Of a DNA stretch of 21,626 bases, positions 3,082 through 7,246 are shown piece by piece. The stretch spans positions 1 through 21,626 of the forward strand of contig JBLFWS010000045.1 in NCBI GenBank assembly GCA_047611865.1. Reading direction: 5' to 3'. The notes under the pieces were generated by a model. It was not told where the DNA came from. It ran no database searches and worked only from the letters and a program-made list of their open reading frames with translations. The position numbers were made by a program, and so were the translations under genes. Numbering within the stretch: position 1 is the first letter of the stretch; each line of letters starts with the position of its first letter. Source of the DNA: Chlamydiales bacterium (GTDB lineage Bacteria; Chlamydiota; Chlamydiia; Chlamydiales; JBDQID01).

Positions 3082-3510
3082 TTACTCTGCAAGATACTCA
3101 ATAAAACATCTTTCGGCACCATCACCAGCACGATTACCTTTTTTAATGATACGAGTGTAACCACCTTGTCTTTCAACAAAGCGAGTTCCAAGTTCATCAA
3201 AAAGCTTGCTGATAACAAGACGATCGTCGTTGTATGCACTAGTGTCACCATCTCTGGCAGCACGAGCTTCCTTACTAGATAACGAGTTAAAGCGAATCAT
3301 TAGGCGACCAATAGCATCTCTTCTGCTAGCCAGAGTATTTTTCTTAGCTAGTGTGATCATGCTATCCGCATAACGTCTTAATTCTTTAGCCTTAGCAACA
3401 GATGTCTCAATACGCTCGTGCGTAATAAGAGATTTGAGCATATTGGCTAATAGACAGCGCGTATGCGAACAATTACTAGCTATCTTAAATGTTCTTTTTC
3501 TATGTCTCAT
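3082..3510 (-). CDS. rplQ: 50S ribosomal protein L17 (with chlamydial insertion)
   Basis: [29 protein letters not shown]; insertion [21 protein letters not shown] typical of Chlamydiae. Confidence 0.98.
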
Positions 3511-3530: not shown

Positions 3531-4619
3531 CTACTTCCCAAGCACTTCTTCACGATGTTTGGTTACAATACTTTTAACGTTTTCACGCGTGACATTGTAC
3601 TTGTTCAAATCCATGCCAAGGTTAAGTCCCATCTCGAAGAGTTTGGCCTTAATCTCATTAAGTGATTTCTTACCGAAGTTTCTAAACTTTAACATCTCAG
3701 ACTCGGGCTTGATAACAAGCTCCGCTATGCTTTCAATATCTGCACCATTCAGGCAGTTAGAAGCACGTACTGAGAGTTCAATTTCGTCTATACGCATGGT
3801 AAGCTTTAACATCATTTCATCACGGTCACTCTCTTCCTGAGAAGAACCTTCTTCGAAAACGATGCTATGAGTTTTGATACGGTTAAGGACATCAAAGTGC
3901 TTAATTCCAATTTGAGTAGCAAAAGAAAGGGCTTCTTGTGGAGAGATCCTTCCATCTGTTGTAACTTCTAGAACCAAGCGGTCGTAATCTGTATCTTGTC
4001 CTACACGTGTATTTTCAACAAAGTAATTCACCAGTCTGACAGGAGAGAAGCTTGAATCGATGACAATTTCATCAATAAGCTTATGTTCAAATTCGTGTCT
4101 TTCTGATGGAACATAACCTCTACCAATGGCCACTTTTAAGTCCACTTGACGAACACATGGTTTCGTGACAGTGAAAATATGCAGGTCTGGATTAATAAGG
4201 TCGTACTCGCCAGCTGTTATCAAATCTCCCAAGGTTACTTTACGAGAGCCAAGTTCTGTAAGCTCTTCTTCAGTAACTTCGAGTGTAGTTGTAATAATTC
4301 TGGGCTCCCTGGAAAAATTTTCTTCTTCCACTGGAAGTCTACGTAGAAGAGCATTTTTAAGATTAAGGATGATATTAGTCATATCCTCAATAATGCCATC
4401 TACAGCCATATATTCGTGTGTCACACCTTCAATACGAACTGAAACAATCGAAGGGGCTTCCAAAGCTGTTAGAAGCATACGACGCATTGAACTACCAATT
4501 GTGTGGCCGAAACCTCTTTCAAATGGTTCTGCAATAATGCGAGCAAATGTTGGCGTAGCGCTTTCATCGTCAATCTTAATCTGCTCAGGGATTTCAAATT
4601 TGCCATATACGACTGACAT
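3531..4619 (-). CDS. rpoA: RNA polymerase subunit alpha
   Basis: EPFERGFGHTIG, GRGYVP, FSPV, ELSVRASNCL, NFGKKSLNEI; SD AGGAG. Confidence 0.99.
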   Translation of the reverse strand: MSVVYGKFEIPEQIKIDDESATPTFARIIAEPFERGFGHTIGSSMRRMLLTALEAPSIVSVRIEGVTHEYMAVDGIIEDMTNIILNLKNALLRRLPVEEENFSREPRIITTTLEVTEEELTELGSRKVTLGDLITAGEYDLINPDLHIFTVTKPCVRQVDLKVAIGRGYVPSERHEFEHKLIDEIVIDSSFSPVRLVNYFVENTRVGQDTDYDRLVLEVTTDGRISPQEALSFATQIGIKHFDVLNRIKTHSIVFEEGSSQEESDRDEMMLKLTMRIDEIELSVRASNCLNGADIESIAELVIKPESEMLKFRNFGKKSLNEIKAKLFEMGLNLGMDLNKYNVTRENVKSIVTKHREEVLGK

Positions 4620-4641
4620 AAAACTAAACTCCTGTGGGCTC

Positions 4642-4804
4642 TTGTTGTGATTCCATACCGCTTACATTAATGTAACGGAGACTTTCCTGATTGGGATCTG
4701 TATATTCCCAAATCGAGGCCGGCTTCCTCTTGAAGCCTTTTCATCTTTAGCCTCTATTCATTCCCATCACCATACAGGGATGGAATCCATTTTTTCCACA
4801 ACAA
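4642..4804 (-). ncRNA. Candidate multi-branch cis-regulatory RNA between rpsK and rpoA
   Basis: Nested helices 4642-4649/4797-4804, 4649-4656/4780-4787, 4658-4678, 4689-4714, and 4715-4754 enclosing 4721-4737. Confidence 0.5.
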
Positions 4805-4834
4805 CGTGAAATATTTCGCTGATGTATACTCTAC

Positions 4835-5236
4835 TTAGACGCGACGACGCTTTGGTGGTCTGCATCCATTATGAGGTACTGGAGTCTTATCTCTGATTAT
4901 GCTAACGCTCAAACCAGCACTAATTAGTCCACGAACAGCAGATTCTCTACCGGCACCAGGACCTTTTAGATTAACTTCGACCTCTTTCATCCCCATTGAA
5001 GCAGCAGATTTACCGGCTGACTGAGCAGCAACAGTAGCAGCGAAAGCTGAGGATTTCCTGGAACCAGAAAAGTTTACCTTTCCTGCAGATGCCCAAGATA
5101 CCACGTTGCCAGCTGGATCGCTAATGCTGATAATGGTGTTATTGAATGTAGCTTTTACACTAACAATCCCAGTAGGGATGTTACGTAAAACCTTCTTCTT
5201 AACTTTCTTTGTCTTGTGTGAGGATTGCTTAGCCAA
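4835..5236 (-). CDS. rpsK: 30S ribosomal protein S11 (TTG start)
   Basis: [50 protein letters not shown]. Confidence 0.99.
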
Positions 5237-5300
5237 AGCTTTCTCTCCTTACTATCTCATTAAGTTAATATACTGTTCAAACCACTTTCAAGCGGCAACT

Positions 5301-5669
5301 TTATTTCTTCTTACCAGGTATCGCTCTTCGCTTACCCTTACGAGTTCTAGCGTTTGTGCTGGTTCTCTGTCCGCGAACGGGCAGTCCAGTACGGTGGCGA
5401 ACTCCACGGTAACTGTTGATGCTCATCAGTCGTTTGATGTTATTTTGTACTGTTCTTCTGAGATTACCTTCGCAAACGTAGTCAGTTTGAAACGCTGCAT
5501 TTAGGCGCGCAATATCATCTTCTGTGAGGGTCTTAGCATGCATGTCAGGATCTAAACCTAGCTTGCTAATTACATCATTTGAAAGGTGACGACCAATACC
5601 ATAAATGTAGGTAAGGGCGATTTCTAATCTCTTGTTATCAGGTATGTCTATACCAATTACGCGAGGCAT
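5301..5669 (-). CDS. rpsM: 30S ribosomal protein S13
   Basis: IALTYIYGIG, YRGVRHRTGLPVRGQRTSTNART. Confidence 0.99.
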   Translation of the reverse strand: MPRVIGIDIPDNKRLEIALTYIYGIGRHLSNDVISKLGLDPDMHAKTLTEDDIARLNAAFQTDYVCEGNLRRTVQNNIKRLMSINSYRGVRHRTGLPVRGQRTSTNARTRKGKRRAIPGKKK

Positions 5670-7156: not shown

Positions 7157-7196
7157 GTTACATCACTTGCGGTTGAATAGAGCGTTACAGATCTAT

Positions 7197-7230
7197 AAAT
7201 AAAAGAACATGAGCTTAAACTCATGTCCTT
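7197..7230 (-). terminator. Terminator/attenuator-like hairpin between rplO and secY
   Basis: AAGGACAUGAG-UUUAAG-CUCAUGUUCUU followed by UUAUUU on the mRNA strand. Confidence 0.55.
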
Positions 7231-7246
7231 CATAGCTGGTATGTAT

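Follow-up and report, generated by a model that had tools for sequence, protein, structure and literature searches.

What occupies the gap between rpsK and rpoA in a chlamydia whose rpsD is missing from its usual place there, and does the RNA transcribed from this gap act as a switch, as an initial annotation of the locus had proposed? The window analysed here, a stretch of 21,626 nt from a Chlamydiales bacterium (3.6-Mb genome; assembly 95.5% complete, 272 contigs), has the S10-spc-alpha cluster of ribosomal-protein genes on its - strand, with a gene order and proteins that we take to be of the chlamydial type, in agreement with the initial annotation. rpsK, a 133-aa ORF encoding S11 (4835..5236, - strand) with matches in 38 of 40 related genomes, is followed on the same strand by a spacer of 215 nt (4620..4834), by rpoA, the ORF for RNA polymerase alpha (3531..4619), and, 20 nt after the latter, by rplQ (3082-3510). 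The absence of rpsD from this site, pointed out earlier, was borne out when the gene was found on another contig, where its upstream region shows no similarity to the element. The structured element (4642-4804) thus occupies a position 5′ of a ribosomal-protein operon part, upstream of rpoA-rplQ; its first helix begins 30 nt after the rpsK stop codon, and its end lies 8 nt from the AGGAG Shine-Dalgarno site of rpoA (4633-4629, - strand), matching the distance of about 8 nt given at first. Similar Shine-Dalgarno sites are seen at the same place in related spacers. An assembly artefact is argued against by a contig of 221 nt that a different study produced (run X5, record 9, depth 3.4) and that corresponds to 4570-4790 with zero differences.

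Two further structures were observed in the vicinity. Immediately past the start codon of rpoA, a hairpin of 5 bp (4600-4618, - strand; probability 0.63 at 37 C) raises the cost predicted for opening this start region. In the rplO-secY spacer (7157-7246, - strand; spacer z -2.7), the sense strand has a 13-bp hairpin and then a U-rich run just before secY, an arrangement that is terminator- or attenuator-like.

All helices named in the initial annotation were located on the - strand, i.e., in the mRNA sense, within the 215-nt spacer. P1 (4804-4797 with 4649-4642; 8 bp) closes the domain, and the long-range P2 (4787-4780 with 4656-4649; 8 bp) has base 4649 in common with it, so that a single 3′ arm (4642..4656) serves both helices. 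The segment 4780..4787 has two partners, namely 4656-4649 in the long-range P2, which is minor, and 4768-4762 in the local hairpin P2b (4762..4785; 4785-4779/4768-4762), which is dominant, reaches a probability of 0.91 at 37 C and forms first in step-wise folding. The firmest part of the domain (4715..4754) consists of P3 (4754-4749/4720-4715) and P4 (4737-4732/4726-4721), both firm, which are separated by a one-sided A-rich bulge of 11 nt (4748-4738). The hairpin P5 (4689..4714; 4714-4706/4696-4689) has a probability of 0.56-0.74, the hairpin P6 (4658..4678; 4678-4671/4666-4658) a moderate one, and a possible mini-hairpin of 3 bp in the linker between them (4679..4687) reaches 0.12-0.16 at 37 C and 0.47 at 10 C. 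In a 261-nt context at 37 C, pairing probabilities were 0.92-1.0 for P3/P4, 0.55-0.74 for P5/P6, 0.33 for P2 and 0.16 for P1, the 5′ arm of which (4797..4804) ranged from 0.16 to 0.35 at this temperature. The description of the spacer as almost fully nested was overstated, since the fold originally drawn contains 43 pairs in 163 nt, with 53% of the bases paired.

On the mRNA strand, 4642-4804 folds at -50.3 kcal/mol (z=-3.45), and none of 200 shuffles folds as well; the whole spacer, the ends of which were not picked by eye, gives z=-2.2, with 6 of 200 shuffles as good. The + strand yields z values of -4.45 and -3.24 for the same two stretches. The element therefore beats its shuffles (0/200), but its level is common among the spacers of its own genome, where 56 of 166 co-oriented spacers of 150-280 nt reach z <= -2.2 (crude gene calling; 166 of 170 such spacers folded, 20 shuffles each). 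Because so many comparable spacers fold as well, folding energy says little here and, taken alone, is unremarkable in this genome.

Selection on the structure is indicated by comparison with one relative, an 18.6-kb marine contig (run X7 record 17) that is ~91% identical and spans 4200-5300, a range over which public contigs from 4 of 8 sequencing runs were compared and the relative differs by 98 other letters and 5 gaps. The comparison of stems and loops covers 4642-4743, with the 5′ arms of P1, P2, P2b and P3 lying outside, and uses the first 40 of 96 substitutions, which are in place order to 4743 and should thus be complete up to that point (they include 7 of the 11 by which run X8 record 25 differs); the indels are complete, and none falls in 4744-4834. 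With the stems of the initial annotation, set before the relative's data were seen, 2 of 65 stem places had changed vs 13 of 37 loop places (Fisher p=2e-5), and the contrast persisted when P6 was left aside (0/49 stem vs 10/32 loop places; p=3e-5). The adjacent rpoA has a synonymous divergence of 0.175 (17 of 97 sites), given which the probability of zero change in 49 stem places is 8e-5, and the loop substitution rate is 0.27. The contrast is found within G/C places (1/35 stem vs 5/9 loop) as well as within A/T places (1/30 vs 8/28). Without recourse to hand-drawn stems, the computed pairing probability on the - strand averages 0.29 at changed places vs 0.57 overall (permutation p=0.0008; 1 of 123 circular shifts as low).

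The individual helices follow the same pattern. The 3′ arm of P3 and both arms of P4 are unchanged in the relative, the P4 loop is changed at 2 places, and the P3/P4 bulge is altered in sequence with its length of 11 nt kept through one insertion and one deletion. The P5 stem is unchanged while its loop carries three indels, and all five gaps of the 1.1-kb stretch sit in loops of the element. Both stem changes of the test fall in P6, the 3′ arm of which is unchanged and the 5′ arm of which, read by hand, retains 7 of 8 pairs by shifting its register by 2 nt. Positions 4687 and 4679 both differ, so that the outer G-U pair of the mini-hairpin becomes C-G; this was noticed afterwards and is the sole two-sided change, lying in a weak 3-bp hairpin, while the stems of this one relative are otherwise invariant. 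At the level of sequence, the invariant stems are to be read as constraint and not as covariation, and the element is an RNA structure apparently under selection on the evidence of one relative. That the loop sequences are not kept is expected if shape counts more than binding sequence.

A small protein gene, i.e., a 25-codon ORF with its ATG at 4744, was rejected on account of changes at 4742-4743 that remove the ATG in the relative and three indels at 4697-4704 that shift the frame; ORFs of 7-8 codons at 4790 and 4773, beyond the compared range 4642-4743, displayed nothing remarkable. An anti-Shine-Dalgarno pairing (4789-4782 with 4632-4625) had a probability of 0.76 at 10 C in one folded stretch and of 0.00 in a longer one, was further weakened by the relative's change at 4626, and was likewise rejected. 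A loop-loop pairing of 4777-4771 with the P5 loop is possible by eye, and the P5 loop changes in the relative.

The relative's changes do not fix the working strand, because the + and - folds fit them equally well: none of 123 circular shifts matches the contrast obtained with the + strand fold, and three G-U pairs weakly favour the mRNA strand. The selected function might reside on the antisense strand, where P4 with a T tract, possibly joined by P2b with a second T run, would stop antisense transcription from rpoA into the ribosomal-protein genes or end a small antisense RNA. Along with the + strand contrast, this reading draws on a terminator-like match on the + strand at 4721-4737, on the slightly better folding of that strand (z -4.45) and on the relative's changes at 4742 and 4743, both of which add T to the tract. 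However, the hairpin and the T-rich tract that follows it (4721..4748, + strand) score d -10 in this genome, below the terminator line; two terminator-like matches occur in the region vs 0.8 +/- 0.8 expected, and a consensus scan revealed no antisense promoter near rpoA. Moreover, P3, P5 and P6 are left unexplained, and the U-G pair of P3 becomes an A-C mismatch on the + strand. An antisense role is thus considered unlikely.

The proposed switch rests on the two mutually exclusive pairings of 4779-4787. Both are possible, but the long-range fold is minor and has no predicted output: in nearest-neighbour predictions over 4570-4834, made without proteins or pseudoknots, its share of the ensemble is 0.077 (37 C) and 0.001 (20 C), as against 0.91 and 0.996 for the local P2b fold. 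To open the rpoA ribosome-binding site, a predicted 7.1 kcal/mol is needed in the long-range fold, 6.7 kcal/mol in the local fold and 7.0 kcal/mol without the element, and since these costs are nearly equal, the two folds lack a predicted output. No sense-strand intrinsic terminator (a hairpin and then a U tract) was found, so that the predictions disclose no expression platform tied to the fold, at either the ribosome-binding site or a terminator, and the reading of the element as a switch is weak.

A protein could nonetheless be the missing partner. In this explanation the element would be a protein-binding leader of rpoA-rplQ, with S11, S13, L17, S4 or alpha as the ligand, the binding of which would shift P2b to P1+P2 or the reverse and thereby change translation, decay or read-through. 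The site is the same as that of the Bacteroidia and Flavobacteria S4 leader candidates, ahead of (rpsD)-rpoA-rplQ, and, in the accessible portion of the source, leaders of this kind mostly have a narrow range, and these two candidates do not mimic rRNA (PMC7247131). Within the element, one-sided A-rich bulges recur at two places (P1/P2 and P3/P4), the relative carries the 3′ arm 4642-4656 without change, and the gap between the local and long-range folds, ~3 kcal/mol in the 163-nt piece, would be within reach of a bound protein. Against this stand the ribosome-binding-site access predicted to be the same in both folds, the lack of a sense terminator and the variation of loop and bulge sequences, the usual contact points, in a relative that is 91% identical. 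With rpsD on another contig, any feedback exerted by S4 at this site would leave the gene for S4 itself uncontrolled. The assembly contains no rRNA, and the sequence-level comparison with the 16S and 23S rRNA of another chlamydial family revealed no excess similarity and no convincing mimicry: the best local score of the element was reached by 13 of 300 shuffles for 16S and by 166 of 300 for 23S, and fewer 8-mers were common to the element and the rRNA than in shuffles. A protein-binding leader is, on balance, conceivable but doubtful. The specific form, a new alpha-operon leader class and the first ahead of rpoA in Chlamydiota, in which alpha, L17, S11 or S13 would pick P2b or P1+P2 and set the decay or read-through of rpoA-rplQ, is more doubtful still.

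An S4 leader of the Firmicutes or Fusobacteria type was also considered and rejected. In the accessible portion of PMC7247131, these leaders carry a GUAA 5′ of a hairpin, with a GCU loop in Firmicutes, whereas the single GUAA of the present element (4665-4662) lies in the wrong context, within the 3′ arm of P6, which is paired; a GUAA is also present in 57% of shuffles. The known-leader list of that source, as far as accessible, names Chlamydia once, for S15, and the accessible part of PMC9514032 provides general operon context only.

The question of how widely the element occurs was addressed by searches at several levels. As the initial annotation had expected of a new element, Rfam returned no match: nothing in the window reached the gathering score of Rfam 15 except one tRNA, and no family matched 4500-4950 even at E <= 10. 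BLAST against 400 scored genomes of the phylum (one further genome was not scored) gave no credible homolog; 91 non-self genomes had matches at E <= 0.1, all of them fragments of <=44 nt, with a best E of 2e-4. A covariance model, which as a single-sequence model is insensitive and may miss distant homologs, gave one match at E 0.013, about the level of chance and with helices not kept, among 148 other scored genomes, no credible homolog among 96 loci (95 rpsK-rpoA and 1 rpsD), and a best E of 4.3 among 28 further loci. A gapped pattern run over GTDB had 74 matches, none of them in named chlamydiae and none scoring with the model, and plasmids and viral contigs held no homolog. In a metagenome scan with RpoA, the best relative was 67% identical and no congener appeared, and a look through sequencing runs listed none of RNA that carried the sequence. 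As far as these searches reach, the element is confined to a narrow lineage.

The suggestion of a general chlamydial leader is not upheld by the spacers themselves. The only other genome of the family has a 67-nt rpsK-rpoA spacer of unrelated sequence, and 100 related spacers, taken from 28 related genomes (29 non-self loci, one without rpoA) and from 72 of 80 metagenome loci (8 without rpsK), have a median length of 31.5 nt (range 13-426), with 17 of them at least 80 nt long. In one family (f31), 11 of 28 spacers measure at least 116 nt, and none resembles the element; one is an inverted repeat that is near-perfect. When 28 non-redundant spacers of at least 80 nt were folded, that of the window included, 25 had a negative z and 11 a z <= -2; a compaction test, in which the exterior path of the fold was compared with shuffles, showed no consistent pattern across the 28. 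Short, unrelated or structured inserts elsewhere, together with the lack of a homolog, imply that inserts without mutual relationship, with a tendency to fold, have entered this gap repeatedly.

Several of these spacers deserve description in their own right. Two related spacers of 152-155 nt (L219:1888-2039 and L100:1338-1492) share their last ~25 nt, and in each of them a long-range stem encloses several hairpins (z -3.0 and -5.2), so that their architecture resembles that of the element while the sequence is unrelated; their two-sequence alignment gave no common fold. In the 129-nt spacers of two species of one genus (L015 and L228), the few differences appear, by eye, to lie mostly outside the predicted stems, a pattern that echoes in another lineage the stem conservation of the element. 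The longest spacers comprise L016 (G004) with 426 nt and L019 and L117 with 256 nt each, beside L118 with 146 nt; folding is strong in L016, L019 and L118, with z values of about -2.5 to -6, and weaker in L117. The 328-nt spacer of L226 (G370) is a near-perfect, MITE-like inverted repeat with arms of ~65 bp and a z of about -16.

The presence of such a repeat in the same slot of another chlamydia bears on the possibility that the element is the relic of a mobile hairpin element or of an intron piece in a tolerant slot, without a specific role, the stems of which would be kept either because unfolded inserts are mildly selected against or because repair is biased toward hairpins. The slot accepts unrelated inserts, as the long spacers of family f31 attest, and the window's own genome is rich in multi-copy hairpin repeats: 22 of its 40 best-folding spacers have further copies. 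Several long hairpin repeat families of this genome (G000), with ~10 to >100 BLAST matches each, are exemplified by C1:37178-37427, C113:4602-4876, C9:28075-28314 and C115:8820-9002. The element resembles the MITE, REP or REPIN-like repeats of the genome in its paired ends and its intergenic position just after a stop codon, but differs from them in being single-copy and in having a terminal pairing of only 8 bp, which is unique in the genome. The BLAST check for dispersed mobile copies, called for at the outset, detected one copy only; neither nhmmer nor the covariance model (next best E 0.32) retrieved a second one from the genome, similarity to 12 repeat families did not rise above shuffles, and no target-site duplication was seen in the flanks. 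The stems are, furthermore, kept far tighter than synonymous sites, and a relic without a role appears distinctly unlikely.

The paired ends (P1), as found in many discrete RNAs, could also point to the 5′ leader of a separate rpoA-rplQ transcript started at an internal promoter, or to a small RNA cut from the message. A long, highly expressed rpoA 5′ UTR is described for Mycobacterium tuberculosis in the accessible part of PMC3207917. On the other side, P1 is weak, the Rfam search named no family at E <= 10, and a consensus scan of 4500-5400 disclosed no sigma-70-type promoter on the - strand. We regard this explanation as very unlikely.

The best explanation, to which we assign a probability of roughly one half, is a constitutive cis-acting fold that shields a ribosome-free gap or marks the protected end of a processed piece. 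The setting would be the inside of a long S10-spc-alpha transcript, gene order suggesting co-transcription across the gap. Growth of the gap in this lineage from ~30 nt to 215 nt would have left a ribosome-free stretch in a heavily used message, which may fold during transcription into P2b, P3/P4, P5 and P6, with P1 closing loosely. Such a fold could hide single-stranded RNA from RNase E and Rho; alternatively, it might form the protected end of a processed piece, either the upstream ribosomal-protein mRNA or the rpoA-rplQ mRNA. In both cases initiation at rpoA would be left unchanged by the fold. The genome encodes RNase III, RNase E/G and Rho, and on the sense strand C is rarer than G (35 vs 54). 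The element presents a feature of systems in which RNA is selectively processed and stabilized, i.e., a stable structure between genes without a U tail, provided that gene order is a guide to co-transcription. According to the accessible portions of PMC4423207 and PMC5927463, stem-loops that lie between genes and lack U tails shield the processed pieces of operons and are acquired in one lineage at a time. In favor of protection, the other long chlamydial spacers at this site, though unrelated, tend to fold; against it, a domain of four to five hairpins with a length-kept bulge exceeds the needs of simple protection. The RNase processing site that the initial annotation had listed among its alternatives comes close to this explanation; the switch that it proposed was not supported.

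Taken together, the element is real, single-copy, undescribed and narrow in range, and it is apparently selected; the early emphasis on a switch and on generality among chlamydiae held up in neither respect. No description of a chlamydial rpsK-rpoA RNA was found in the literature searched, the coverage of which excludes most subscription papers. The element is best classed as an undescribed, lineage-restricted intercistronic fold that is probably ordinary in kind: were protein binding true, it would be a new leader, and were message protection all that it provides, it would be ordinary. The element bears on how chlamydiae, whose S4 is encoded outside the operon, keep ribosomal proteins in balance with RNA polymerase alpha, and a true leader would imply feedback on alpha in a lineage whose operon S4 has left. 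It appears that a multi-hairpin RNA under selection can emerge in the rpsK-rpoA gap of one lineage only, and the gap thus offers a small natural case of new cis-acting RNA structures born in conserved operons.

Among known systems, the E. coli rplL-rpoB intercistronic region contains an attenuator and an RNase III site. It resembles the present locus as a structured gap that leads, within one transcript, from ribosomal-protein genes to an RNA polymerase gene; here, however, there is neither a sense-strand terminator nor a continuous ~20-bp duplex for RNase III. The S4-Bacteroidia and S4-Flavobacteria candidates are nearest by position and similar in their narrow range and, at the level of sequence, in showing no rRNA mimicry, but, in the accessible part of PMC7247131, they are single hairpins ahead of rpsD that are backed by covariation, whereas the element has a multi-branched fold, no Rfam match and an rpsD located elsewhere. 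The closest working likeness is to selective RNA processing and stabilization in Clostridium cellulolyticum (PMC4423207) and differential operon decay in E. coli (PMC5927463), as far as the accessible portions of these sources describe them. The stem-loops of these systems, like the element, lie within a polycistronic message between genes of large complexes, have no U tail, and are gained and tuned per lineage, and RNase E is present in the genome studied here. They differ in being single stem-loops with a mapped processed end, whereas the element is a multi-hairpin domain of ~165 nt known from sequence, and the genes that flank it include ribosomal proteins needed one to one (compared with the accessible parts of PMC4423207 and PMC5927463).
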